A stretch of DNA of 56,145 bases from a phage. The DNA is taken from the sequence record PZ386950.1, one strand, 5' to 3'. The notes below the pieces were generated by a model. The model was not told the origin of the DNA. It saw nothing but the letters and a program-made list of their open reading frames with translations, and made no database searches. A program made the translations under genes and the position numbers. This document shows positions 7,490-56,040 of the stretch, one piece after another (within the stretch, counting starts at the first letter, position 1; every line of letters begins with the position of its first letter).

Positions 7490-7531
7490 ATGTTAGTGTT
7501 ACTGCTTGCAATGTGTCAAGAATTATTTTAA
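7490..7531 (-). promoter_or_regulatory. sigma70-type promoter with UP element (copy 3)
   Basis: minus-strand TAAAATAATTCTTGACACATTGCA then about 17-18 bp and TAACAT-like -10. Confidence 0.55.
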
Positions 7532-7562
7532 ACTTCTGTCAACGTTAACCAATGAGGAACGA

Positions 7563-8222
7563 ATGATGTTTGAACATCCGTGGAACATACCTGCATATGA
7601 TGCTGAAAGTGAAAAACAATCACTTGACTATCGAATGTACGCACCAATTTTAAGAAATCCGTCACAAATTATGGAGAATGCTGATGACTTTGAAATCTTT
7701 GAAAAACGCCCTTGTGGTCCAGCAACACCTGTCAAAACAAAACTGTTAATGACACCGAAAGCCCGTGGTAATACTTACGAAGAATTCATTGCGACCGGGT
7801 GGAATGACGACCAGTTAGTCGAACATGGTTATGCTGTTCGTACTACAGACAAACGTTCCTGGTCACCAATGACCGTCGGAACTGAAACAATTACACCACC
7901 TTCAAACTGTCGGTGCACATTCACCCCTGTTCAACAACCATCAACAGCGTCTGACTTGCTGAAACAGGCTGAACAGCTACTGACAGAACGTGGTAAGCAG
8001 TATGACACGTCTGGTCAGGAACGTTCGTCAGCTAAAATCGTTGCTGCGTTTAACACAATTACCGGGCGCGACTTAACACCGGGTGAAGGGTGGTTGTTCC
8101 TGATGTTGTTAAAAGCGGTTCGTTTCTATTCCAACACTGAAACACCACATCGTGACAGTCTGGAAGACCTGATCAGCTATGCTGCATTACACGCAGAGGA
8201 ATATCTTAACGATGAACGGTGA
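7563..8222 (+). CDS. hypothetical protein with conserved 35-aa module and all-alpha C-terminal domain
   Basis: track ORF trimmed to ATG 7563 (RBS tgaggaa); contains TYEEFIATGWNDDQLVEHGYAV module shared with the SSB-like protein. Confidence 0.5.
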   Translation: MMFEHPWNIPAYDAESEKQSLDYRMYAPILRNPSQIMENADDFEIFEKRPCGPATPVKTKLLMTPKARGNTYEEFIATGWNDDQLVEHGYAVRTTDKRSWSPMTVGTETITPPSNCRCTFTPVQQPSTASDLLKQAEQLLTERGKQYDTSGQERSSAKIVAAFNTITGRDLTPGEGWLFLMLLKAVRFYSNTETPHRDSLEDLISYAALHAEEYLNDER

Positions 8223-8394
8223 ACAAGCATTCGACCTTCTGGTTAAATACGACATTATTGTTATTCACTGTGACCGTGAACAAATCGTTTTCACAGACGA
8301 TCTTCGTTATGAAGAACCTTATGACGGTGATAAACGGTCAGCCACGATTCGGTTAATCGAACGTGTGGCACGTGACAGAGGGGAACTATTATAA
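8212..8394 (+). CDS. hypothetical small protein
   Basis: internal ATG at 8212 overlapping upstream stop. Confidence 0.4.
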   Translation: MNGEQAFDLLVKYDIIVIHCDREQIVFTDDLRYEEPYDGDKRSATIRLIERVARDRGELL

Positions 8395-8588
8395 TGGTTC
8401 AAACTATTTCTGAATTACTACCCACCGTTTATGGCAACGTGACAGAACTTGCCAGGCGGATTGGGTGTAACAAAGCGACAGTTTATAAATACATGGATGA
8501 CACCAACGGTGAATTTCACGCAGTGGTGAATGGTAAGTTGATGGTCAGACCCGGTTTTAAAGGACGTTATACTCGTGACAAAAGATGA
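8394..8588 (+). CDS. small putative DNA-binding protein
   Basis: 64-aa ORF; ELARRIGCNKATVYKYM resembles helix-turn-helix. Confidence 0.45.
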   Translation: MVQTISELLPTVYGNVTELARRIGCNKATVYKYMDDTNGEFHAVVNGKLMVRPGFKGRYTRDKR

Positions 8589-8732
8589 AAAATTATTACG
8601 TGAACTTGAAATAGACTACGAACGAGCGCAAAAAGCGTTACAGTTTCTGGAAGAACAGATCCGCGAAGTTAAGAACCGCATTCAGGGAACTGAAAAACGT
8701 AATCTTCCACGCCCGTAACACGTGATATAATC

Positions 8733-8761
8733 AGCCTCAGTGTGTTAACTGAGGCTTTTTT
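8733..8761 (+). terminator. rho-independent terminator
   Basis: stem agcctcag-tgtgttaa-ctgaggct followed by ttttt immediately before ATG of next gene. Confidence 0.65.
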
Positions 8762-9721
8762 ATGGCTACTAAAGACCCATACCCGGATATTTCAGACAAG
8801 TATGACGCTCGTATTCGCGAAGCACTTGATGTCGTGTGGGAAAACGTGCGTCGTAGTGAGTCGTTAGCTAACCTGGAATACATCATTGAAACTCAGGGTA
8901 TTGCCGGATTACTCCCCATTCTTGAAACACTCCCTGATGAACTTAGTGCACAGTTGCGCCCGGTTATTGAAGATGCGATCGCCGAATCAGGTCGTGTAGT
9001 CGTTCAGGTTTTACCGAAAGCGGCTGTGACAGGTCCGGTTGTGTTCAGTCTGGTCACCCCACAGGTCAGTACATACATCAACAACTATGTCGGGCAACTG
9101 ATCCGTGAAGTCAGTGATGAAACAGTCAAAGCTGTTCAGATTGCAGTTAACCAGGGTGTGGTAACCGGACGAAATCCGCGTCAGATAGCCCGTGATTTTC
9201 GATCATCAATAGGGTTAACAACACGGCAGGAAATGACGGTTCAACGTCTGCGATCAGCACTGGAAAAAGGTGAAGCAGGTTATGTGAACAGTCTGACCAC
9301 TGTTACAGACAGTGCAAAGAACGCTGTAAGTGCCGGGAAACTATCACAGGCGAAGATTGACCAGATAATCGAACAGACACGCTTGCGTTATGTAAAACAG
9401 CGCACAGAGACGATTGCGCGTACTGAATCACTTCGTGCTGTATCAGTTGGTCAGGATAAGGCTATTCGTCAAGGGCAGGTTACCGGGGCTATTAGTAATG
9501 AATTGCTGAAGCGCTGGTTATACAGAAAGGATGGTAGGACACGTGACGCGCATATTTCCACGGGCGAAACGAACGGCTGGATACCAATGGACAGACCGTT
9601 TTCAACACCGTTAGGACCACTTATGTTTCCTCGTGATCCTAACGGTAGTGCTGCGAACACGATCAACTGCAGGTGCCGGGTTCAGTATAGTTTACCTGAA
9701 GATATTGGTTCACTGGGTTAG
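8762..9721 (+). CDS. head morphogenesis protein (Mu gpF / SPP1 gp7-like)
   Basis: 319-aa ORF with C-terminal NTINCRCRV motif typical of F-like head morphogenesis proteins. Confidence 0.7.
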   Translation: MATKDPYPDISDKYDARIREALDVVWENVRRSESLANLEYIIETQGIAGLLPILETLPDELSAQLRPVIEDAIAESGRVVVQVLPKAAVTGPVVFSLVTPQVSTYINNYVGQLIREVSDETVKAVQIAVNQGVVTGRNPRQIARDFRSSIGLTTRQEMTVQRLRSALEKGEAGYVNSLTTVTDSAKNAVSAGKLSQAKIDQIIEQTRLRYVKQRTETIARTESLRAVSVGQDKAIRQGQVTGAISNELLKRWLYRKDGRTRDAHISTGETNGWIPMDRPFSTPLGPLMFPRDPNGSAANTINCRCRVQYSLPEDIGSLG

Positions 9722-10227
9722 ATGTGACACGGCATTACAATCATATATGCATCGTTTGGAAAATGAATATGAACCGGTCGATTAGAACTTTGCATACTAA
9801 TTTTTGCTTTACACACCCCGAAATATTTAGCCGCTTTAGCAGCGTCGTTTAAATATTGCAAATTCAGTCCGATTTCCGAAATTTTACATTCATCATAGCG
9901 AGCAACTCTACGCCAGTCTGGGTAACGCCCGTCAACAATGTCCAATGGTGTTTGTTGAACAGTCTCACCATTAACATCACAAAATGTTGCTGTATTATGT
10001 GTCACATCGATTAATACATGGTCAAATTTAGCTGGTGCTTTACCTTTAACAGATACAATAACAGTTTCATCATCTGTCATTGCTTTACCAACGAACATCC
10101 TGTAACCATCGGTTGACACAATAAAACCATCACTGTCAATACAGACCCCGTTGAAACAACAACGAACGTCGTTTTTTGCAGCGCAAAGAATTGCACACAT
10201 AAATTCAGGTCTACTAACTCTAATCAT
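9718..10227 (-). CDS. single-domain DNA polymerase III beta-clamp-like protein
   Basis: 169 aa from ATG 10227; VRCCFNGVCID...STDGYRMFV and IVDGRYPDWRRV closely match DnaN motifs (RYYLNG...ATDGHRLAV; LVDGRFPDYRRV). Confidence 0.6.
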   Translation of the reverse strand: MIRVSRPEFMCAILCAAKNDVRCCFNGVCIDSDGFIVSTDGYRMFVGKAMTDDETVIVSVKGKAPAKFDHVLIDVTHNTATFCDVNGETVQQTPLDIVDGRYPDWRRVARYDECKISEIGLNLQYLNDAAKAAKYFGVCKAKISMQSSNRPVHIHFPNDAYMIVMPCHI

Positions 10228-10499
10228 TCCTGTTTCTCCCCGCAGAACGGACAATAAGACATTTTGATGTTGGTTTCCAGGCGTGTGAAGTTCTTCGCCA
10301 GTTCACCGTTTTTCTTTTTGGCACGGTATGCAAGACGATATTTCAACATAACGTGAATTTTACCAGACGTCAGACCGAAACACTGATTATCCCAGCCAAC
10401 TTTATCAAACAGGTTAGTGCTGACTTCCGAACCTACTGGTACTTTTACCATCAGACGTTTTTGAAGTTCGTCACCAACTTTTTTCATGCAATCACACAT
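10224..10499 (-). CDS. zinc-ribbon protein
   Basis: 91 aa, N-terminal CDC and C-terminal CPFCG. Confidence 0.5.
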   Translation of the reverse strand: MCDCMKKVGDELQKRLMVKVPVGSEVSTNLFDKVGWDNQCFGLTSGKIHVMLKYRLAYRAKKKNGELAKNFTRLETNIKMSYCPFCGEKQE

Positions 10500-10660
10500 T
10501 ATGTATACCTCGATAGACGTTTTAATTTAACTATTAATCTTGTGACTTTACTCCAGTCAGATTCAGTAAAGTCGTCCACGTCTTTAGCCCATAACTCATT
10601 AACATGTCGTGGGTTATATGGTTCTTTCTTGACAGGCTGTTTCCGTTTCTTTTTACCCAT
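10499..10660 (-). CDS. small basic protein (about 53 aa)
   Basis: ATG at 10660 with GGGGAA RBS; TAATG overlap with downstream gene; not in track. Confidence 0.35.
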   Translation of the reverse strand: MGKKKRKQPVKKEPYNPRHVNELWAKDVDDFTESDWSKVTRLIVKLKRLSRYT

Positions 10661-11059: not shown

Positions 11060-11461
11060 TTATTTAATGATTAATGTTGGTTGTAAGTCTTCTTCATACC
11101 AAGTCCAACCAATGCATGTACCATCTTCAGCATCAACATATGGTTTCAACCAGTCGATAAATTGTTCAATCTCACCACCATAATTTTTAATATCGCTACG
11201 ACTAAAAATATATTGAGTATCGGTGAAATCAAATTTAGGACAACTATTTATTACTTCCGGGTGATGATAAAAACTGCTACAACTACCAATAAAATTCCAT
11301 CTGGGGAGACTGAAAAACTTATGTTGTGGTAGTTTCTCTGGTTCTTTTTCACCACAGAACATGTGTGCAATAATAGCTTTCACATCCACAGGTACATCTG
11401 CTTTAATCTGACACTTCAACACTAATTCGGTATACATTCCCATTTTCACATCCTCATTCAC
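11060..11461 (-). CDS. hypothetical protein
   Basis: 133-aa ORF; alternative start at 11443 has better RBS (GAGGA). Confidence 0.5.
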   Translation of the reverse strand: MNEDVKMGMYTELVLKCQIKADVPVDVKAIIAHMFCGEKEPEKLPQHKFFSLPRWNFIGSCSSFYHHPEVINSCPKFDFTDTQYIFSRSDIKNYGGEIEQFIDWLKPYVDAEDGTCIGWTWYEEDLQPTLIIK

Positions 11462-11489
11462 CAGCGACCCATTGTCGCTTCCTGTAATA

Positions 11490-11530
11490 AAGATATCCTA
11501 CCGTCTGTAATCCGTCAAGAATTATTTTAA
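11490..11530 (-). promoter_or_regulatory. sigma70-type promoter with UP element (copy 4)
   Basis: minus-strand TTAAAATAATTCTTGACGGATTACA plus 17 bp and TATCTT. Confidence 0.6.
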
Positions 11531-11619: not shown

Positions 11620-11760
11620 TAGTAGATCATAGATTCATAGATCGCGTCATGTTTATTTTTGACCAACCCATCTCTATCTTATTCTTTTTATTATCTTTTT
11701 ATAGAAAACATAGAAAACATAGATAAATAGAAGAGTAGTATAAGTAGTAAAAGTTGCTGC
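11620..11760. repeat. AT-rich element copy A (about 90 percent identical to 50985-51125)
   Basis: cgtcatgtttatttttgaccaacccatctctatcttattctttttattatctttttatagaaaacatagaaaacatagata matches second copy nearly base for base. Confidence 0.8.
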
Positions 11761-11886: not shown

Positions 11887-12255
11887 ATGGATCCGAACAT
11901 CAGAGTTGCCACAGACGAATTCATTCGTCGCGCCTGTAAAATTCATGGTGATCGTTACGACTACTCATTCAGCATTGTTGAAGATAGTTCCAGCACAGTG
12001 GTTATTATTGACCGTGAAACTAATACAGTGTTTTTCCAGGTTGTCGCTGAACATCTGGACGGTGTTGAACCAGTAACGACTGCTGTTGAACCGGTAACGA
12101 CTGCTGTTGAACCGGTAACGACTGTTGTTGAACCGGTCAAGAATCTTTCTGAGACATTCGGTAACGTTGCAAACAGCGTGTATCACCAGTGCAATTATTC
12201 ATCTGAAATGTTAGAATTTAGTCATGTTGAAACAATACGAGGACAGTCCCCGTGA
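11887..12255 (+). CDS. hypothetical protein with VEPVTTA tandem repeats
   Basis: track ORF starts at GTG inside the promoter -10; trimmed to in-frame ATG 11887 with RBS AAGAAGGG. Confidence 0.55.
   Translation: MDPNIRVATDEFIRRACKIHGDRYDYSFSIVEDSSSTVVIIDRETNTVFFQVVAEHLDGVEPVTTAVEPVTTAVEPVTTVVEPVKNLSETFGNVANSVYHQCNYSSEMLEFSHVETIRGQSP
12064..12137 (+). repeat. 21-bp coding tandem repeat (about 3.5 copies)
   Basis: gttgaaccRgtaacgactgct repeated, encoding VEPVTTA. Confidence 0.85.
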
Positions 12256-20278: not shown

Positions 20279-23194
20279 ATGGCACAATATCCTATTGATA
20301 TTAAGATTGACACCGGTTCGGCTGACCGCAATCTTAATAACCTTAACAGTCAGTTAGATCAGACTGAAAAATCAACCATAGCTGCTGCACAGGCTGCTAA
20401 TCAGTTATCTGAGGCTGAACAGCAGGTTGCAAAAGCAGCACAGCAACTGGCACAGCAACAAGCTAATCAGGCTGCGCGTACTATAGCAACTGCTCGCGCT
20501 ACTCGTGAAGCGGCAACAGCACAACTACAGCTTGAAAAATCACTTTCTGCATCTACTGACAACTTTCATGTTATTGCACGTTTACAGGCGCAAGTTAAAC
20601 AAGCTACTGAAGCTGAAACAAAAGCTACAGAACAATTAAAAAACAGTCTTAAACAACTTGTACCTGAACAGAAAAAAGTCATAGAAAATACTAAGCAGGT
20701 AGAAACCAGCACTAACAAAACAACAGGCGCTCTTGAAACACTTGTCACTGGTGCAAAAGCGTTTGTCGGTTTACAGATTGCAGGATCGCTTTACGACTGG
20801 GGTAAAGCCTTTGTAGATACTGCAACGAAAGTCGAACTGCTACAAAGTCGTATCAATCTGTACACATCAACGTCTGTCGAATCACAACAGATATTTGCGC
20901 AATTAGTACAACAAGCTAACCGTGCTGGTACAGATATTGACGCTGTGGCAAACAGTTTTCAGCGTTTTGCCGCTGCTGGTAAAGATGCCGGGATTAGTAA
21001 TCAGGTTATTTTACAGTTTACCGACAACCTGCAAAAAATGGCCCGTGTATCTGGTGCATCCAGTGCTGAAGCATCTGCGGCTATTTATCAATTATCACAG
21101 GCATTTGCATCTGGTCGTTTGCAGGGTGATGAATTCCGATCTGTGTCAGAACAGTTACCAACTGTTCTTCAGGTGCTGGCTAAACAGATGGGTGTCACCA
21201 CGGGGGAACTTAAACATTTAGGTTCTGATGGTGAAATTACCCGTGATAAACTGTTGTTGTTAAACAACGCGACTGATGAAATCAGCGCACAGTTCGATAA
21301 ACTTCCTCGTTCTGTAGATCAGTCTGCCACTGCGTTACGTAACAACCTGTCTGTGGCTATTGCTGAACTCGATCAGCAGATTGGCGCATCTAAATTCCTG
21401 GCTAAATTCCTGGACCTGTTAGCAGGTGGTGTATCGGGTACAACAGAGTTAATAAAAGCCGCTGCAGGTGCTGACAAACTGGCACAAGCCACTAACAATC
21501 TGAACAGTGTTACCGCAAAACGTGAAGCCAATCTGAAAGAAATTGCAGATCTGGAAGCACAAATTCAGCGTGGGTATACAACACAGTCAATTGGTGGGTA
21601 TACAAAATTTGTTGGTGACACCAGTGCTGCACAGAAGAAATTAAACGAACTTAAAAAACTTGATGTTCAGTTAACAAAACAACAAGCAGAAGCACAACGA
21701 GGGGTTGTTCAGGCTACTCCGTTGGGTAAGGGTGTTGCTGAAAATCTTGCAAATCAGGCAAGCACTTTACAGGCGAGTATTACGGCTGCTCAGGCTGCCG
21801 GACGTCCTGATGCCGAATCTGCAAAACAGATTAAAAATCTGAAAGAACAGATCACCTATACCCAGGCGCTTGCTGACGGTAACTATGAACTGGCAGCAAG
21901 TCAGAAACTGGGTAATAAAGCAACGAAGGAACAGATTGCAGACTACGCCGCGTTGTTGAAACAACAGGCAGAATATAAAGAAAATCAAAAGAACCAGAAG
22001 AAATCAGCCAGTGCTGAAGCATCTGCTGCTAAACGTGCACAGAAAGAACTGGAACGTAATCAGGCTGCTAACCAGAAATACCTGAAAACGCTTCAGGATA
22101 AAATCAATGCTGGTAATTATGATGTTCAGTTAGCACGCGAACAGGTTCAGATTGCTTTAACACAGGGGTCGTCTGTTGAACAACTTACAGCAACGTATCA
22201 GAAAGAATATCAGGTACGTCAACAGTTAACGCTGGCATCACAACAGGCAGAAGCACAATCACGACTGAATAAAGACGCGACTGATGCTGAACGTGCCGCT
22301 GTTGATGCACATGTGGCTGCATTGCAACGACAACAGCAGATAGCACAGTTAAGCGCAGATGTAAAACAAGTTGACATTGATGTGAAAGCACAGTTGAACC
22401 CGTATCAATCACAAATTGATCAGGTTAATCAACAGGAAGCAACACGTCTTAGTATTATTCAAACTGCCCGTGAACAAGATTTAATCAACGAGCAACAATA
22501 CCAGGATATGAAAACGCAGATTCAACAGGCTGGGGAACAAGCCCGTACGAATCTTGCAAACGCTAACTACAGCTTGTTGCTACAATCCAGTGCTGATTTT
22601 TTGGGTCAAATGGCTGCTGGTCTGGCACAATCTAAAGGTGAGCAATCAAACGCGTATAAAGCGATGTTTGCACTGTCTAAAGCCTTTAGTATCGCACAGG
22701 CAAGCATTAACCTGTGGACAGCAGTTAGCCAGGCTATGGCGTTGCCGTTCCCGGCGAATATTCCGTTCATTGCACAGGCTTTGTCATATGGAACAAGCGT
22801 GTTAGGTAATATTCAGTCTGTGGCTGCAACAGGTTTTGCAACGGGTGGTTATGTTAAAGGTCCGGGTACAGGTCAGAGTGACAGTATAAACGCACGTTTG
22901 AGTAATGGTGAGTTTGTCAGTACCAAACAGGCTACCAGTCGTTATCGTAGCACTCTGGAAGCAATGAATCGTGGGACATATACCCCCGGATCTGAAGGTG
23001 GTTCATCACCTAATATTCAGGTTCATAACTACGGTGGTGAACGTGTTCAGGTGAAACAAGGATTAACACGGGATGACGTAGTGCTTATCATAGGTGAAGA
23101 ATTCCCACGACAATCAGCGGCACAATGGAATGACCCGTACAGTCAGACAAATAAAGCGTTCAGGTCTAACTATGATGCGAACAGGAAAATATAA
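20279..23194 (+). CDS. tail tape measure protein
   Basis: 971 aa, long Q/A/K-rich coiled-coil N-terminal two thirds, location after chaperone pair. Confidence 0.85.
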   Translation: MAQYPIDIKIDTGSADRNLNNLNSQLDQTEKSTIAAAQAANQLSEAEQQVAKAAQQLAQQQANQAARTIATARATREAATAQLQLEKSLSASTDNFHVIARLQAQVKQATEAETKATEQLKNSLKQLVPEQKKVIENTKQVETSTNKTTGALETLVTGAKAFVGLQIAGSLYDWGKAFVDTATKVELLQSRINLYTSTSVESQQIFAQLVQQANRAGTDIDAVANSFQRFAAAGKDAGISNQVILQFTDNLQKMARVSGASSAEASAAIYQLSQAFASGRLQGDEFRSVSEQLPTVLQVLAKQMGVTTGELKHLGSDGEITRDKLLLLNNATDEISAQFDKLPRSVDQSATALRNNLSVAIAELDQQIGASKFLAKFLDLLAGGVSGTTELIKAAAGADKLAQATNNLNSVTAKREANLKEIADLEAQIQRGYTTQSIGGYTKFVGDTSAAQKKLNELKKLDVQLTKQQAEAQRGVVQATPLGKGVAENLANQASTLQASITAAQAAGRPDAESAKQIKNLKEQITYTQALADGNYELAASQKLGNKATKEQIADYAALLKQQAEYKENQKNQKKSASAEASAAKRAQKELERNQAANQKYLKTLQDKINAGNYDVQLAREQVQIALTQGSSVEQLTATYQKEYQVRQQLTLASQQAEAQSRLNKDATDAERAAVDAHVAALQRQQQIAQLSADVKQVDIDVKAQLNPYQSQIDQVNQQEATRLSIIQTAREQDLINEQQYQDMKTQIQQAGEQARTNLANANYSLLLQSSADFLGQMAAGLAQSKGEQSNAYKAMFALSKAFSIAQASINLWTAVSQAMALPFPANIPFIAQALSYGTSVLGNIQSVAATGFATGGYVKGPGTGQSDSINARLSNGEFVSTKQATSRYRSTLEAMNRGTYTPGSEGGSSPNIQVHNYGGERVQVKQGLTRDDVVLIIGEEFPRQSAAQWNDPYSQTNKAFRSNYDANRKI

Positions 23195-27356: not shown

Positions 27357-29783
27357 TTACCACGCAGCGACGGCAACGCGCCGCCATGTGTTAGTTGCTG
27401 TGCAAATATAAAGATAAGAGCCATCAGAAGCCCATTGCCCCTCCTGGCCTCCAGACGTTGCTGTTGCTGGGACTGGCACCTTCATGGAAAAAATATACCC
27501 ATCTGTAGCAGAAGCAGGCTCTGAACCTGGTTTATATAGAATCCCTACTGAGCTTTTGAAAAGCCAGCCTTGCCCCCACTGAATTCTACGTCTGTCGTAT
27601 GCTGGCTGTGTCGATGACTTTGTTCCAATAGCAAGATCGCTCTCTATTTTATACGGACCGGAATAGCTGCCAATGTTAATTGCGTTTTTAAGGTCGTGCG
27701 GGCCGATACAAATGCGACCAGAAACGTTGGAAGTCGACGTGTTAACGGAATAAGCAAGTCCGGGAAAGTCTTTAAGGTTTAAGACATCAAGATTGTTGAT
27801 GTTCTGAAAATACAGTGTTGTATCCGTCGAGACGGTTGAATAGTTAACGCCATCAATAATCCGCACGTCGTTGCCGACCGTTACCGCCCACGGGCCTGAT
27901 GCCGACCCCGCAATACTAATACACCGCCCCGCGTTTTTATCGTCGGCTTTGCGGACCGTGGGAATGAGGTCCAGATACTGAGGCCCGGTTACCTGTATGA
28001 AATTTGCGTCTACGGTCATTTTCGACCGGATAGGGTTTCGAATAAAAACACCAAAGTCGCAAGTCATTTCGGCAGTAAAATTAACAAGTTCATACAAACG
28101 GCTATCCGCGCCGCCGTGTGAGTTTGATAACGAACCGCCTTTAATACCATCAAGCCAGATCCCCAGACCGCCACGGTCCTTCCCTGTGCTTATCCCGGAG
28201 AAATGCACATTACGGCCCCAGTTGTAATATGGGGTGAAGAGGAAGTCTACATAGAAGCCGTTAATGGATTGTGACCCTGAAGAGATCCCGTAGTCGGTGG
28301 CGACCACGCCATCAACCGTACACTCGATAGGACTCATCATCTTAAATGCGGCGTTGTCCGTTGTGCCGGTAGCGCCAGACGTTACGATATTGTCAATCGT
28401 CATCCTGCGAGCATAAGTGAAGCTCATCGCGCTCGGAGTGGATGCCGTAACGATACAGTCCCCGAAGTTACCTGCGTAAGAGTAATCGTTAATGCTTCGA
28501 TTAAACCGGCAGCCTTTCACCTGCAGCGACGTTATCGCCCTGAGCTGTAAAACGTCAAAATTCGCATTCAGAATATTAAGTTTATTAAGGAACGCGGCGG
28601 GTACGATAAACGGATCGCCAAAGGCGGTAACCAGAGGGTCCTCTAAAACGAGCTGGGAAGCGCTGGCGGATTTAACCCGGGAATGTTCAAAATAGACGGT
28701 CCCGGAGTTAACGGAGTCTGTTCCGGTAATGTTTTCGAAGCGTACAACGTCACCAGCTGAAAATGCGCTGAAATCGCCGGTGATAGTTGTCGTCCCTACC
28801 GCCAGGGTGCCAGAGTATTTTACAAAAGTAGTTTTACTAATCACAAATTTATCAAAGGCAAAACGTAGCCCATCGGCGATAACCAATTGTGAAGAGTCAG
28901 CTGAAACTACAGTTGAGAAATGTATACCAATCTGATTTATACTACCATTGAATGCGGTATCTGCGGCTAGTTCAATTACAATCTTATCACCGGGACTATA
29001 CGCAGAAAAATTACCAGGAAAAGTTGTAGTACCTACAGCATAAGTTGTATAATCATTAACAGTACCAACAGTTACAGAATTAGTACGAGTTTTTAATATA
29101 TCGCCTTTTATGACAACAAAACCGCTGATAACACCAGGACCAGTTAGGTTAAGACCACCTCTGGAAAATACAAGGCCGTCCCAATTGACGTTAATATCTA
29201 CTACTGCTTGCTTATTGTTATCTATGCAGTAATTTAAAAAAGTGGTCGCTAATGCAGCCTCGTTTCCAGAACCTGTAAAGCCAAAAGATGACGCTGTAAC
29301 AGACGATAACCCGCCAACCATCATAGCACCGTTTACTGATGCCAGTTCCTGGCGTAAATTAGCATCACCAACACTCACCATATGAGTAACATCAGTTGCC
29401 CACGATGTACTATTTGTACCCGTGGTTGTGTATGGTGGAGTTGTGGCCGCGTTTAATCGCCAGAATTCATTCTGATAACGAATAATCTGGTTACGAGCTG
29501 CAATTGTGTATGGTCCGTTTTCATAATCTCCCAGGAACTGATACCCAGAATTTAAAAGGAATTGCTGAAAACGTGCTTCTTTATCAGCCTGAGCATCCTG
29601 AAACTGAGTCTCCATACCATCAAGTGTCAAGTTCGTTACTTGCTCACCGCGAATGGTATCAGTTACAGTTAACGCATGTGCACCGTTAGCATCTTTACTT
29701 TTAGCCACATGTTCTATGTGCTGGACTGCTTGTTTACCTGTTTTAAGGTCGTCAGCACTGATATAATCACTGCAGTTAGCCAT
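27357..29783 (-). CDS. tail fiber / tailspike protein
   Basis: 808-aa ORF; G/T/S/N-rich repetitive central region consistent with beta-helix; encoded opposite to the rest of the tail module. Confidence 0.65.
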   Translation of the reverse strand: MANCSDYISADDLKTGKQAVQHIEHVAKSKDANGAHALTVTDTIRGEQVTNLTLDGMETQFQDAQADKEARFQQFLLNSGYQFLGDYENGPYTIAARNQIIRYQNEFWRLNAATTPPYTTTGTNSTSWATDVTHMVSVGDANLRQELASVNGAMMVGGLSSVTASSFGFTGSGNEAALATTFLNYCIDNNKQAVVDINVNWDGLVFSRGGLNLTGPGVISGFVVIKGDILKTRTNSVTVGTVNDYTTYAVGTTTFPGNFSAYSPGDKIVIELAADTAFNGSINQIGIHFSTVVSADSSQLVIADGLRFAFDKFVISKTTFVKYSGTLAVGTTTITGDFSAFSAGDVVRFENITGTDSVNSGTVYFEHSRVKSASASQLVLEDPLVTAFGDPFIVPAAFLNKLNILNANFDVLQLRAITSLQVKGCRFNRSINDYSYAGNFGDCIVTASTPSAMSFTYARRMTIDNIVTSGATGTTDNAAFKMMSPIECTVDGVVATDYGISSGSQSINGFYVDFLFTPYYNWGRNVHFSGISTGKDRGGLGIWLDGIKGGSLSNSHGGADSRLYELVNFTAEMTCDFGVFIRNPIRSKMTVDANFIQVTGPQYLDLIPTVRKADDKNAGRCISIAGSASGPWAVTVGNDVRIIDGVNYSTVSTDTTLYFQNINNLDVLNLKDFPGLAYSVNTSTSNVSGRICIGPHDLKNAINIGSYSGPYKIESDLAIGTKSSTQPAYDRRRIQWGQGWLFKSSVGILYKPGSEPASATDGYIFSMKVPVPATATSGGQEGQWASDGSYLYICTATNTWRRVAVAAW

Positions 29784-29810: not shown

Positions 29811-30134
29811 ATGTCCGATAATCCGGTATTGAAATATTGGCCTATTATAACATTTATTGCAACGGGTGCGGTAGGTTTTGGCGTACTCCAGCAACAGGTT
29901 AACGCAACGGCTAAAGATGTAGCTGACGCAAAAGTAAACGCCACCAACGCCTATAACCTCGCAAAACGTATTGAATCTCGTGTTGATGTACACGATGTAA
30001 AGTTAGAGTATCAGGCTGTTCAAAATACTCAAATCCTTTCCAGCGTCAAAGAACTTACCCAGTCTACTAACGATCTAAAAGTCGTTATTGAAGGTCTTAA
30101 AAATCAACGTCGTACAGAAGGTGAAACAAGATGA
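29811..30134 (+). CDS. holin-like protein (single TM helix plus coiled coil)
   Basis: N-terminal hydrophobic helix WPIITFIATGAVGFGVL; ATGA overlap with endolysin gene. Confidence 0.45.
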   Translation: MSDNPVLKYWPIITFIATGAVGFGVLQQQVNATAKDVADAKVNATNAYNLAKRIESRVDVHDVKLEYQAVQNTQILSSVKELTQSTNDLKVVIEGLKNQRRTEGETR

Positions 30135-35316: not shown

Positions 35317-36300
35317 TCAGTAACCGTTACCGTTGAGAAAATTCGGGGCCGGGGTGGTCATTACCATATAACCGTTAGCGATCAGTTGTTCATCATTCCA
35401 ACCTTGCGCAATAAACTGTTCGTAAGTAGCACCACCTGCTTTTTCAGTCATTACCTTCACAGGCGTTGCTACAGGTGCTGCCGCTGGTGTAGGCGTTGCT
35501 ACAGGTGCTGCCGCTGCTACAGGCGCTGCTACAGGTGCTGCCGCTGGTGTAGGCGCTGCTACAGGTGCTGCCGCTGGTGTAGGCGCTGCTACAGGTGCTG
35601 CCGCTGGTGTAGGCGCTGCTACAGGTGCTGCCGCTGGTGTAGGCGCTGCTACAGGTGCTGCCGCTGGTGTAGGCGCTGCTACAGGTGCTGCCGCTGGTGT
35701 TACGCCGATCGGACGTGCACCTTCAGGCATTGCAGGAGCAGCACCGAACACAGATGCAGGAGCCGGACCAGAAATAATTTCTTCACCTGCATAAAGCAAT
35801 TGCGCCATTTCCATGTTGATATACACACCGGCCTGGTTACCTGTACGACCGTTTGCAACAGATGATCCGCTGATACGGTAGTAATAACCTTTTTTCGCCA
35901 GATTTTTATCAATAACTGGCTGGTACGCTGCGTTATAAACCGGACACGCGTCAATAGCCACGTTGCGTGAGAAACCAATTACCCAGTGACCAGCATAACC
36001 AGTTTTACTCGCATGTTTCGGATCGTCACCGTTAATAATTTTCCATGCGAAAGTGGGTTGTTGTGGTTCGCCGTTCACATAGTGTGAGTTAGCCGCTCGC
36101 ATGATGGCCTGGAACACCGCACCCAGTTCACCTTGTTCTTCCCACCAGTTCGCCGCTGTTTTAGGAAACGCCAGACCAACCCACCAGTTATGTTTTTCAG
36201 GTGCTAACGGTTTATTTTCGTGGTCATGGGTGTTGATATCGAAAAAAGAACCGCCAACCAGACGACCAACCGGAGTTACAAAAGATTCTTTCTGTGCCAT
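35317..36300 (-). CDS. putative ssDNA-binding protein (DUF2815/gp2.5-like) with P/A-rich repeat linker
   Basis: position between DUF2800 nuclease and polymerase genes; strong RBS AAGAAGG; long PTPAAAPVAA repeats; C-terminal conserved module. Confidence 0.45.
   Translation of the reverse strand: MAQKESFVTPVGRLVGGSFFDINTHDHENKPLAPEKHNWWVGLAFPKTAANWWEEQGELGAVFQAIMRAANSHYVNGEPQQPTFAWKIINGDDPKHASKTGYAGHWVIGFSRNVAIDACPVYNAAYQPVIDKNLAKKGYYYRISGSSVANGRTGNQAGVYINMEMAQLLYAGEEIISGPAPASVFGAAPAMPEGARPIGVTPAAAPVAAPTPAAAPVAAPTPAAAPVAAPTPAAAPVAAPTPAAAPVAAPTPAAAPVAAPVAAAAPVATPTPAAAPVATPVKVMTEKAGGATYEQFIAQGWNDEQLIANGYMVMTTPAPNFLNGNGY
35461..35700 (-). repeat. 30-bp coding tandem repeat (about 8 copies)
   Basis: aggcgYtgctacaggtgctgccgctggtgt repeated nearly perfectly. 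Confidence 0.9.
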
Positions 36301-45081: not shown

Positions 45082-45473
45082 TAATAGTCGTTACAGGTGG
45101 TCGTGACTTCAACGACAGAACAGCAGTATTTTCCGCGTTAGGACTACTTCACAAACAATTCCCCATTACCGAACTAATTGAAGGTGGTGCGTCAGGTGTT
45201 GATAACCTGTGTAAGCAATGGGCGCAATTACACGGTATTCCTGTACGTAGTTGCCCGGCAGCATGGGACGATCTGACTGTACCAGGTGCGGTTGTAAAAC
45301 AAGGTAAGCACGGGCCTTATAACGCTGTTGCAGGTCATCAACGTAATCAGGCGATGTTAGAGGGTGAGCCACGCCCTACATACGGTGTTGTGTTCCCCGG
45401 TGGTCGTGGTACTGCTGATATGCACCGTCGCATGTTGAAAGCTGGTTTAACTGTGTGGGTGCCGTATGGTTGA
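45078..45473 (+). CDS. SLOG-family protein (DUF2493-like)
   Basis: IIVVTGGRDF ... EGGASGVD Rossmann-like motifs in 131 aa. Confidence 0.55.
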   Translation: MIIVVTGGRDFNDRTAVFSALGLLHKQFPITELIEGGASGVDNLCKQWAQLHGIPVRSCPAAWDDLTVPGAVVKQGKHGPYNAVAGHQRNQAMLEGEPRPTYGVVFPGGRGTADMHRRMLKAGLTVWVPYG

Positions 45474-45828
45474 TGCGTATCATATTACTAAAGTGGAAAA
45501 CCGTGAAAGTATCCTGATGAAAGGTATCGTACCAGGGATAAAACTGATCACCAATAATTTAGATGGTCGTCAGGGATTAGGTGTTCCCATCCGTTCCTGT
45601 AGTTATGATAATTTATACGGTTTCCACCCCGTGTTCATTACCTTTAATCCTGTTGAGGCTATATCAATAATGAGTTATCGTGGTTCTGCTGATGAATGGT
45701 GTGTTGCTGTTATAAACGCTACTAATTTACAACATAAACCCGGTCGTTTTTCGTGGGAGTCAATCACTGATTATGTACCTGCTGATTGTATAAAACGTTT
45801 CGAACCCCTGACCAACTTCTTAAAATAA
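45466..45828 (+). CDS. hypothetical protein
   Basis: 120-aa ORF; stop overlaps promoter copy 9. Confidence 0.45.
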   Translation: MVDAYHITKVENRESILMKGIVPGIKLITNNLDGRQGLGVPIRSCSYDNLYGFHPVFITFNPVEAISIMSYRGSADEWCVAVINATNLQHKPGRFSWESITDYVPADCIKRFEPLTNFLK

Positions 45829-45860
45829 TTCTTGACAGATTACCAAACCTCCCCGATAAT
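45822..45860 (+). promoter_or_regulatory. sigma70-type promoter with UP element (copy 9)
   Basis: AAAATAATTCTTGACAGATTACC plus 17 bp and GATAAT. Confidence 0.65.
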
Positions 45861-45894
45861 TAGCCTCAGTTAACATACATGAGGCTAAACACAA

Positions 45895-46662
45895 ATGGCT
45901 AACATTAACTCCCTTCGCAAGCTGTCTGATACCGATAAAACCAACGTAAAACGTGGTAATGCATATCGTATTGATCCGCGTATCATCAAGATTCGCCCTG
46001 GTCATAATCCACGTGGTGTGTTTACCGACAACTACTGGGAAACTGAAGCAGCACTGGCACACATTGAAAACTTTCGTCAGGCTTATACCAACGGCGATTT
46101 CGTTCCACCGATCGTGGTACAGGTTGTTGATGGTGTTCCTTATGTTCAGGATGGTGAGCATCGTTTACGTGGCGTATTGGCAGCTATTGAGGCCGGGACG
46201 CCGATTCTGACAGTAGACGTTGTTGAATCGTCCGGTGACGAACTACAACAGACCCTGACACTGTTAAAAGGTAATGAAGGTAAACCGTGGTCCCCTGTTG
46301 AACGTGCTGTTATTTACGGTCGTTTCCGTTCATATGGCATGAGTGTTGAGCAGATTGCTACACAAGTCGGTAAAACCGTTCAGCACGTTTACGAACAACT
46401 GAATATTCTTGATATGCCGCTGGAACTTAAACGTCGTATTCAGAACGGTGAAATCAGCGCATCAGCAGCCATACGCCAGTTCAAAGCAGGTGATAAAGAA
46501 CCAGTAATAACGCGTCGTCCGCCTGCTAAACTGGTACGATCTGCAGTGGAAGCAATCCGTGGTGAATGGTCTGTAACCCGCCAGGAAGGTGGTAAAGTCC
46601 TGGTTGAACTTACCGCTGAACAGTTCGAAGCGTTAAAAGCACTGAAGGAGCACCAGTTATGA
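45895..46662 (+). CDS. ParB-like nuclease domain protein
   Basis: VQDGEHRLRG motif and HTH-like middle region. Confidence 0.6.
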   Translation: MANINSLRKLSDTDKTNVKRGNAYRIDPRIIKIRPGHNPRGVFTDNYWETEAALAHIENFRQAYTNGDFVPPIVVQVVDGVPYVQDGEHRLRGVLAAIEAGTPILTVDVVESSGDELQQTLTLLKGNEGKPWSPVERAVIYGRFRSYGMSVEQIATQVGKTVQHVYEQLNILDMPLELKRRIQNGEISASAAIRQFKAGDKEPVITRRPPAKLVRSAVEAIRGEWSVTRQEGGKVLVELTAEQFEALKALKEHQL

Positions 46663-49966: not shown

Positions 49967-50764
49967 TTATTGACCCATCATATCTTTATACATCATCAAA
50001 ACAATATCATCCGGCATATTGTCTACATCACAATGTGGGTTGTGTGATAACGCATACAGTCTGATTTTCTCCTTCAAATCGCTGACATCGACTACAGGTG
50101 CTTCCACTCGTGTTACAGGTGCTTCCACTCGTGTTACAGGTGGAAGCACTCGTGTTACAGGTGGTTCCACTCGTGCTACAGGTGCTTCCACTCGTGCTAC
50201 AGGTGCTTCACAAACCATCACATTAAACGGTGTACCGGTGCCTTCGTATTTTTCAAGCAAATCGACCATTACGTTTACACATTCCGGGATCCATCCCCGG
50301 CGCAAACCATTCTGAATCCAACTGTCAGTAATTGTGTGTTCGTTTAAATTCCTGCGTAGCACATATCTTGCACATTCAAAATTACCGCACATCGCCTCAA
50401 ACCGTGTCCACACGTCGTGACCGTGAACAGCTTCCAGGATCTGTGAATCAACGTATCTGACACGTTGCCAGTAGTTATTAGCAAAACGCCTGTGTGGTAA
50501 TTTCTGACGCAGTTCGGTAACCGGTATTGTGTGTTTAAGAACAATGTTTTCGTCAGAATGTTGTACTGACGAAGGTGACAGTGTGAAGTCAGTAATCTCT
50601 TCAAGAATAATACTGATCGTTTCATATTTAGGATGAAACCTACCGCTTAACCATTGGTTGTAACGACCAATGGTTACCTTAACACCTCGACGATTAAGGT
50701 ATTCAACAGCATTTTGTACCCCGCCTTTTAAATCTATCAATTCGTCTAAAAGGTTCTTTTTCAT
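49967..50764 (-). CDS. hypothetical protein with EAPVARV tandem repeats
   Basis: ATG 50764 with perfect RBS AAGGAGG; divergent from terS across the iteron region. Confidence 0.55.
   Translation of the reverse strand: MKKNLLDELIDLKGGVQNAVEYLNRRGVKVTIGRYNQWLSGRFHPKYETISIILEEITDFTLSPSSVQHSDENIVLKHTIPVTELRQKLPHRRFANNYWQRVRYVDSQILEAVHGHDVWTRFEAMCGNFECARYVLRRNLNEHTITDSWIQNGLRRGWIPECVNVMVDLLEKYEGTGTPFNVMVCEAPVARVEAPVARVEPPVTRVLPPVTRVEAPVTRVEAPVVDVSDLKEKIRLYALSHNPHCDVDNMPDDIVLMMYKDMMGQ
50092..50212 (-). repeat. 21-bp coding tandem repeat (about 6 copies)
   Basis: acaggtgcttccactcgtgtt repeated with point variants. Confidence 0.85.
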
Positions 50765-54109: not shown

Positions 54110-54403
54110 TCATACGTTCACCACTCTTAAATCGGGTGTCAGGCTACGATGGTCATGATGACCGTTCATAGTAAATGAGAAAGTGTAATCGCACTGCTTA
54201 CCGTCGAACGTGAAGGGGATTTGAAACCCTGTATCGTCAACGATGCGAACTTTAACCGGGTATTCAGCTTGCGGATCGACTGCTACAACAGTGCCGAACG
54301 GTTTAGATTTGCGACGTGCGAGAATTTCTAACAGTCGTGGATTGGTGATTTCTACGTATTGACCAGTTTTAAACATGGCGATAACTCCAGTTGTTTTACA
54401 CAA
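54110..54403 (-). CDS. hypothetical protein
   Basis: 97-aa ORF downstream of promoter copy 10. Confidence 0.45.
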   Translation of the reverse strand: MCKTTGVIAMFKTGQYVEITNPRLLEILARRKSKPFGTVVAVDPQAEYPVKVRIVDDTGFQIPFTFDGKQCDYTFSFTMNGHHDHRSLTPDLRVVNV

Positions 54404-54408
54404 ACTGA

Positions 54409-54450
54409 AGTCTATCTGATAATGTGTAAACCGTCAAGAATTATTTTAAA
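54409..54450 (-). promoter_or_regulatory. sigma70-type promoter with UP element (copy 10)
   Basis: minus-strand TTAAAATAATTCTTGACGGTTTACA. Confidence 0.5.
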
Positions 54451-55494: not shown

Positions 55495-55816
55495 GTTCGA
55501 CGCGCTCCAGTAGTTCACGAATGTTTTGCAACACCTGTTGTTTTGTCTGAGTAGTGACACATACACCATCAGTACGCCCAAAAGTTTCTAACACAGTTTG
55601 AAGTGCTTGATATATTTCAGGACTATTTAACATTAATGACAGGTTACCCCGGAGTTCCTGGAGTTTTTCTTGTTCTTCGTTTGGTAAATAACAAGGGTCT
55701 TCCATTTTAATAACCACTTGCGCGATTGCCCCGTGGTCTGGTGATGAAATACTCACATGATTTTCAACCCATCCTTCATCTTTAAACCACGGTAATTGTG
55801 AACATTTCATACTCAT
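55487..55816 (-). CDS. hypothetical protein, first gene after promoter copy 11
   Basis: 109-aa ORF. Confidence 0.5.
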   Translation of the reverse strand: MSMKCSQLPWFKDEGWVENHVSISSPDHGAIAQVVIKMEDPCYLPNEEQEKLQELRGNLSLMLNSPEIYQALQTVLETFGRTDGVCVTTQTKQQVLQNIRELLERVEHG

Positions 55817-56040
55817 GACCCTCTTGTTTTTTGTTTAGTGAAAAGATATCTCTTCAACCCGTCGCAACTAATTTCACAATCCCCGCAGGAACCACCATCC
55901 AACCAGATGATGCATAGTGTGTGATTTCGTGGGGTGAGTTACGCTTTATACTCACCGTAGCGCCTGACAATCAGCGGTATCTTCAGCCGGACAATTCCGG
56001 GTTACTACATACTTGGTCAGGTATCTTTTCTATGGCAATA

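Follow-up and report, generated by a model that had tools for sequence, protein, structure and literature searches.

Two unrelated genes of an Escherichia coli phage, encoding a head morphogenesis protein and a ParB-like protein, are preceded by one and the same hairpin stem, which at both places abuts a -10 hexamer on its 5' side and carries the Shine-Dalgarno (SD) sequence of the gene in its 3' arm. Our preferred reading, which we hold at somewhat better than even confidence on computational evidence, is that RNA arriving from further upstream (read-through RNA) would have its ribosome-binding site sequestered by the hairpin, and at the first of the two sites would also be terminated, while RNA started at the local promoter would be translatable.

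The window, by which we mean the whole stretch of DNA analysed (56,145 nt, sequence record PZ386950.1), is, judging from its megablast matches to Sashavirus and 9NA-group phages, essentially the whole genome of an E. coli phage related to Salmonella phage 9NA (Sashavirus/Nonanavirus). Positions 7500-10500 matched the E. coli phages AVIO78A, KarinMuster_Bas82, PJ16 and PDP46 and two Sashavirus genomes with 95-97% identity, and the Salmonella phages 9NA, Sasha, Sergei, Solent and SP069, as well as several Klebsiella phages, with approximately 80%. The accessible literature gave no promoters, hairpins, transcript 5' or 3' ends or expression data for 9NA-like phages. For comparison among relatives we used an alignment of 18 distinct sequences covering both sites (alignment A2), drawn from GenBank phages, IMG/VR contigs and metagenome contigs and representing phages of E. 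coli, Salmonella and Klebsiella plus a metagenome contig. These relatives are close, as the head protein is 89-99% identical in most of them, the exception being a poor metagenome match (L209, 49%).

The original prediction held that a single stem is used both upstream of the head morphogenesis gene (site 1) and upstream of the ParB-like gene (site 2), and this is borne out by the sequence. The stem AGCCTCA(G)/(C)TGAGGCT occurs nowhere else in the window, and the pattern GCCTCA-N4-20-TGAGGC gave two matches against 0.00 expected from 100 shuffles. The 8-mer AGCCTCAG was found four times (0.51 expected), its sole match outside both hairpins being at 20409, in coding sequence. Both RNA folds were more stable than any of their shuffles, with -15.4 kcal/mol for site 1 (z = -5.1) and -10.9 kcal/mol for site 2 (z = -4.1). 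Site 1 passed a terminator scan, with nine pairs, a 6-nt loop and a T-run that directly abuts the start codon, and in this phage it does look like the intrinsic terminator it had been taken for. Site 2 lies, as predicted, between a promoter and the ParB-like start, and has no T-run on either strand.

Table 1 Features of the two sites and of the related promoter family in the window.
Feature	Position	Strand	Remarks
Head morphogenesis gene	8762-9721	+	Phage_Mu_F domain
Extended -10, site 1	8723-8731	+	TGaTATAAT, hexamer 8726-8731; located by motif, conserved in all relatives
Hairpin, site 1	8733-8756	+	5' arm 8733-8741 (AGCCTCAGT), loop 8742-8747 (gtgtta), 3' arm 8748-8756 (ACTGAGGCT)
SD GAGG, head morphogenesis gene	8751-8754	+	in 3' arm, 7 nt before ATG
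T-run, site 1	8756-8761	+	six T's directly 3' of the stem; terminator tail and also SD-to-ATG spacer
ParB-like gene	45895-46662	+	HTH_ParB domain
Promoter, site 2	45820-45860	+	A/T-rich tract, TTGACA 45832-45837, 17-nt spacer, GATAAT 45855-45860
Hairpin, site 2	45862-45886	+	5' arm 45862-45868 (AGCCTCA; plus 45869-45870 via a bulge), loop gttaacataca, 3' arm 45880-45886 (TGAGGCT), then 8 nt to ATG
SD GAGG, ParB-like gene	45881-45884	+	in 3' arm, 10 nt before ATG
Promoter copies	3795(-), 6018(-), 7522(-), 11521(-), 11825(+), 38295(-), 38358(-), 43253(+), 45829(+), 54440(-), 56072(-)		family match
Third case, unrelated sequence	54383-54412	-	5' arm GACTTCAGTT overlaps -10 TAGACT of promoter copy 54440(-)

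The stem pattern is not diagnostic on its own: an exact-pattern scan of IMG/VR returned more than 120 matches, almost all of them unrelated generic hairpins. A look-alike in L028/L122, TTGATATAAT-AGCCTCAGT...TTGAGGCT-tatttATG, was dropped as a parallel, the open reading frame (ORF) downstream having only 16 codons. Rfam 15 gave no match at gathering score anywhere in the window, and near the two sites only chance-level hits (E > 0.1).

Comparison with related phages indicated that the shared element is no coincidence, as E. coli, Salmonella and Klebsiella relatives have conserved both hairpins at these two genes. All 18 sequences show one arrangement, namely the -10 hexamer, a single nucleotide, the 5' arm, the loop, the 3' arm containing the SD and, after a further 7-10 nt, the ATG, and none has an insertion or deletion between the -10 and the 5' arm. 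The loop, by contrast, varies among relatives in both sequence and length (6-11 nt). The gttaac motif that had been noted is indeed present in both window loops, but at opposite sides of the loop, and GTTAAC as a motif is not conserved in the relatives. Furthermore, comparison of the window with L002, L007, L008, L009 and L208 shows that the E. coli clade has the site 1 loop (window 8742-8749) in the orientation opposite to that of every other clade and of site 2, and the site 1 hairpin of the E. coli clade equals the reverse complement of the relatives' site 2 hairpin save for one A. This looks like a flip of the hairpin loop or a conversion from site 2 in the opposite orientation. Because the loop is variable and inverted in one clade, a GTTAAC loop motif or loop-specific recognition appears unlikely.

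In most phages the tail that follows site 1 reads TTTTTT or TTTTCT. In L008 and L208, however, the T-run is absent (GAATCA and GATTCA, respectively) and the hairpin is kept; pairing with AATC in the region of the -10 lengthens the stem there, to folding energies of -21.8 and -21.6 kcal/mol. In L208 the SD becomes AAGG. Site 2 is followed by AAACAC, GAAAAC, AATAAC or GATAAC and never by a T-run. Judging from these tails, termination is not the conserved property, since site 1 of L008 and L208 and every site 2 lack the T-run; what is conserved is the hairpin, tied as it is to both the -10 and the SD.

These observations bear on the simplest alternative, namely that site 1 is a plain intrinsic terminator of the small ninH operon, that site 2 is a functionless duplicated or decayed copy of it, and that the overlaps with the -10 and the SD reflect genome compaction. 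In the window, site 1 has the textbook form of a terminator, a 9-bp GC-rich stem with a 6-nt loop and six U's placed just past a stop codon, and it is annotated as a terminator in phage Sasha; hairpins with the same stem are common in unrelated viral contigs, many of them followed by T-runs. A decayed copy would not explain, however, why site 2 is strictly conserved across three clades while its promoter spacer and leader diverge, nor a plain terminator why the hairpin at site 1 persists, and even lengthens, where the T-run is lost. The stem also holds the SD of the next gene and is abutted by a -10 element, and in each of the 18 variants the two sites retain both the exact -10 register and the location of the SD within the arm. 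Moreover, an efficient stop at site 1 would leave an essential head gene in need of a promoter, for which the 43-nt gap offers only TGaTATAAT. We therefore regard a plain terminator with a relic copy as improbable.

The promoter at site 2 matches 11 of 12 consensus positions and is a member (copy 9) of an 11-copy family in the window, TTTAAAATAATTCTTGACrGATTAC, characterised by an A/T-rich upstream tract, a consensus -35 and a variable -10. In phage AVIO78A an annotated promoter feature underlies the match to this promoter. At site 1 no good -35 is recognisable. Nevertheless, the sequence TGTGATAYAAT, with an optional leading C, is conserved there in all relatives although the upstream genes differ by clade, that of the E. 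coli/Salmonella clade being different from that of the Klebsiella clade, and the DNA similarity of the Klebsiella phages starts right at (C)TGTGATAYAAT. The motif TGNTATAAT is not enriched in the window (three found, 2.5 expected), but all three lie 30-60 nt upstream of gene starts and in the right orientation, a placement which modestly supports a real promoter at site 1. Site 1 thus probably carries an unannotated promoter, with a presumed activity of its -10.

Both sites share the same register, in that exactly 1 nt separates the end of the -10 hexamer from the 5' arm. Sigma-70 RNA polymerase initiates some 7-8 nt past the -10, preferentially at a purine that follows a pyrimidine. Local transcription should therefore begin at C8738/A8739 at site 1 and at C45867/A45868 at site 2, presumed positions which both fall within the 5' arm, and a transcript started there would lack the full hairpin. 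The placement of the site 2 hairpin in a 5' UTR, as originally proposed, is thus not supported, for only 1 nt lies between the -10 of promoter copy 9 and the arm, within which the predicted start falls. As to RNA that could enter from upstream, genes on the same strand reach as far as each module. Site 2 is preceded by promoter copy 43253(+), and no convincing terminator separates the two; for site 1 the sole upstream promoter candidate, a weak one, was found by eye (TTGCAA-17-TAAACT, 7506-7534).

The surroundings of site 2 differ among the phages. In Sasha, Carvaje and BU9 an HNH endonuclease gene is annotated directly upstream of the site 2 promoter, and it is also listed in the 9NA RefSeq record. 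The loci compared there (L138, L140 and L142, against window 45466-45828) differ from the window, which instead has an unrelated 120-aa ORF without a Pfam match, and the swap ends at the A/T-rich tract of the promoter. In SP069 (L139, 1002-1284) an extra 76-aa ORF lies between the promoter-hairpin module and the ParB-like gene, and therefore the module stays with the promoter and not with parB. In Sashavirus 536P12 (L143) the ParB-like gene is apparently truncated (36% covered) and the site 2 hairpin is intact.

GAGG, within the 3' arm CTGAGGCT, is the sole SD-like motif before either ATG, and the GenBank record of Sasha independently annotates this GAGG as the ribosome-binding site of both genes, that of site 1 lying within the feature annotated as a terminator. 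In silico, the probability that the SD is unpaired in read-through RNA was 0.000 at both sites. In a constraint-based calculation, opening the SD of site 1 cost 12.2 kcal/mol in read-through RNA versus 4.8 kcal/mol in the local RNA, and that of site 2 cost 9.8 versus 2.9 kcal/mol. At most one of 200 shuffles of the upstream sequence matched the read-through cost at sites 1 and 2, the gap between read-through and local RNA was present in 18 of 18 variants, and the difference was robust to placing the start anywhere from 6 to 9 nt after the -10. Among 109 candidate gene starts with an SD, sites 1 and 2 ranked first and second for SD sequestration. The predicted local leaders were less structured than their shuffles (z = +1.0 and +1.3), the SD being weakly paired in alternative ways with an unpaired probability of 0.1-0.35.

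Substitutions among the relatives bear on whether the arms pair in RNA or form a DNA site. Alignment columns 20 and 35 pair as C-G in 16 sequences, U.G in 9NA and U-A in L208; columns 15 and 40 as A-U, G.U or G-C; and columns 14 and 41, just outside the core, as C-G, U-A, A-U or U.G. The covariation score of the 11-pair helix was 0.118, against 0.077 in shuffles, none of 500 of which reached it, and slid registers scored at most 0.053. All one-sided changes that preserve a pair are G.U on the plus strand, which would be a mismatch on the other strand or in duplex DNA. This covariation, limited evidence with few independent events among close relatives, points to selection on pairing in the plus-strand RNA. 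Column 14 is the base directly after the -10 and lies upstream of any local start. Because of the position of pair 14-41, the helix that appears to be selected can only exist in RNA started further upstream, and not in the 5' UTR of the local promoter.

An alternative possibility is that the inverted repeat is a double-stranded DNA operator placed over the +1 of both promoters and bound by a dimeric phage regulator, most obviously the ParB-like HTH protein, which would thereby regulate its own gene and co-regulate the head gene. As in the operators of ParB and KorB (parS, OB), the inverted repeat stands beside a parB-like gene and overlaps a promoter; the palindrome occupies an identical position with respect to the -10 in the two promoters, its arms are far better conserved than the loop or the flanks, and the protein has an HTH_ParB domain, the SP069 record labelling it COG1475, 'predicted transcriptional regulators'. 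However, ParB and KorB sites are normally contiguous palindromes, which counts against such an operator, whereas here a variable loop of 6-11 nt separates the arms and their spacing is not fixed. The 8-nt arms are mostly 8 nt apart at site 1, 9 nt in Sasha and SP069 and 10 nt in L208, and 9-10 nt apart at site 2, and yet the ParB-like protein of Sasha is 99% identical to that of the window despite the different arm spacing. The substitutions fit pairing in RNA: one-sided changes allow a G.U pair on the plus strand alone and break the symmetry of the DNA, and the four pair types through which pair 14-41 covaries speak for pairing and not for base-specific recognition. The distant ParB homologues of EcP1, Henu15 and fEV-1 have no promoter-hairpin module, and the presence of the SD in the 3' arm at both sites would be left unexplained. 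An operator is, in our judgement, unlikely.

The suggestion that the shared stem is a protein-binding or RNA-processing site found no positive evidence, and the spacing between the arms varies. As for processing, RNase III needs about 20 bp of double-stranded RNA, and we rejected a processing site for this enzyme as the stems, of 9-11 bp and 13 bp in L208, are too short. Another possible role at the RNA level would be to act on the upstream messages and not on the downstream genes, as stabilisers of 3' ends or barriers to 3' exonucleases. Both hairpins are stable, GC-rich and located just past the last gene of an upstream same-strand cluster, as such a role would have it, but site 2 has no terminator tail with which to make a 3' end, no Rfam family matches, and neither the fixed -10 register nor the SD in the 3' arm would be accounted for. 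We deem this role very unlikely.

The burial of the SD could also suggest translational coupling, in which ribosomes finishing the upstream ORF would melt the hairpin and the downstream gene would be translated only then. In the Klebsiella clade the upstream stop codon TGA does lie within TGTGATA, 8 nt before the stem. The reach of a terminating ribosome is roughly 12 nt, however, and in most phages the stops are beyond it, at 14 nt from the stem in the window, 21 nt in Sasha and 33 nt at site 2, and coupling can therefore be considered extremely unlikely.

We favour, over these alternatives, a promoter-specific control of translation by a module composed of the -10, 1 nt, a 5' arm with the anti-SD CCTC, the loop, a 3' arm with GAGG and, 7-10 nt further, the ATG. 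RNA from an upstream promoter that runs into the module would fold the hairpin and thereby have its ribosome site sequestered, and at site 1 of this phage the hairpin and its U-run should also terminate most of the read-through RNA. RNA from the local promoter would begin about 7-8 nt after the -10, inside the 5' arm, and so without the anti-SD arm; it would form no hairpin, undergo no termination and keep its ribosome-binding site open. The head morphogenesis and ParB-like proteins would then be made essentially only from their own promoters. We infer both that upstream transcription reaches the modules and how large the effect on translation would be.

There is a precedent for such an arrangement in phage T4, where, according to PMC3014915, genes e, soc, 49 and I-TevI carry an inhibitory hairpin where translation begins, and a late promoter lies within this hairpin. 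The ribosome-binding site is sequestered in the early transcripts, and the late promoters are located in the DNA from which the 5' strand of the stem is transcribed. As in these T4 genes, transcripts started upstream of our modules would fold a stem over the SD and/or AUG, here on in silico evidence, and transcripts of the embedded promoter would begin within the stem, lack its 5' strand and be translatable, here as predicted from sequence. Unlike the gp55-dependent TATAAATA late promoters of T4, the promoters in this phage look like host sigma-70 promoters (UP/-35/-10 or extended -10). It also differs from T4 in that one identical stem serves two unrelated genes, and in that the hairpin of site 1 has a terminator tail as well. 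A hairpin that sequesters a ribosome-binding site is likewise ascribed to mobE of phage Aeh1 (Gibb and Edgell 2009, in the references of PMC3014915). There too, read-through transcripts of a phage gene have their ribosome-binding site concealed in an RNA hairpin, but mobE is a homing endonuclease gene, whereas here the genes regulated would be those for head morphogenesis and the ParB-like protein; several relatives have an HNH endonuclease gene next to the site 2 module, on its upstream and not its downstream side.

We also looked at the other genes that follow promoters of this kind. Strong sequestration of the SD by upstream sequence was found in four of the 10 promoter-proximal genes tested, namely at sites 1 and 2 and downstream of copies 54440(-) and 11521(-), and was absent in the remaining six, so it does not hold generally for this phage. 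The hairpin at copy 54440(-) is unrelated in sequence; within its 3' arm AACTGGAGTT lies the SD GGAG of an 88-aa gene starting at 54376. Opening this SD cost 8.7 kcal/mol in read-through and 4.3 kcal/mol in local RNA, 0 of 200 shuffles reaching the former, and the layout of the hairpin is kept in close relatives. At copy 11521(-), the SD GAGG of gene 11443(-) pairs with ATATCTTTATT, which overlaps the -10 (11443-11500, minus strand), and the cost of opening fell from 8.65 kcal/mol in read-through to 0.02 kcal/mol in local RNA. Relatives, however, preserve this pairing poorly, and we therefore count this case as a weak further instance of the layout.

Other features of the window were noted in passing. 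Promoter copies 38358 and 38295 stand in tandem, 63 nt apart. Downstream of copy 56072(-), about 220 nt (55817-56036, minus strand) contain no plausible ORF (an ATG is followed at once by TAG) before the gene at 55816, and may represent a small RNA or a long, structured leader, with no match in Rfam. Two extended -10 motifs, TGATATAAT (29759-29767, plus strand) and TGTTATAAT (29844-29852, minus strand), face away from each other, each lying within the first codons of its divergent neighbour, an 808-aa gene at 29783(-) and a 107-aa gene at 29811(+), the latter with a hydrophobic N-terminal stretch; CACTGATATAAT is invariant in relatives. Tandem repeats are found at 35461-35700 (30 nt, 8.0 copies), 50093-50209 (21 nt, 5.6 copies) and 12063-12137 (21 nt, 3.6 copies), and a 9-nt repeat of 3.7 copies at 11701-11732 lies between the divergent copies 11521(-) and 11825(+), upstream of the latter.

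More speculatively, 9NA-like phages may possess a reusable insulator cassette, consisting of a sigma-70 promoter in the 5' arm of a hairpin that sequesters an SD and sometimes terminates, with three clear instances here, of which two have identical stems kept alike by conversion or loop flipping; or else the stem may also be read by a phage factor, for instance the ParB-like HTH protein, which would co-regulate the head gene and its own gene. We consider this extension fairly unlikely.

The underlying control principle has been known from T4 since the 1980s, and the biology proposed here is accordingly incremental and not surprising. We found no description of a promoter-hairpin module of this kind for 9NA-like phages in the accessible literature. 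If our reading is correct, the two hairpins would be neither a plain terminator nor a 5' UTR element, but promoter-specific translation switches of the kind proven in T4, and T4-type control would extend to an unrelated group of siphoviruses with apparently host-type promoters. The annotation of these phages would have to change, as terminator, ribosome-binding site and promoter would overlap, and the module would constitute a compact natural insulator, combining the three, that could be reused.
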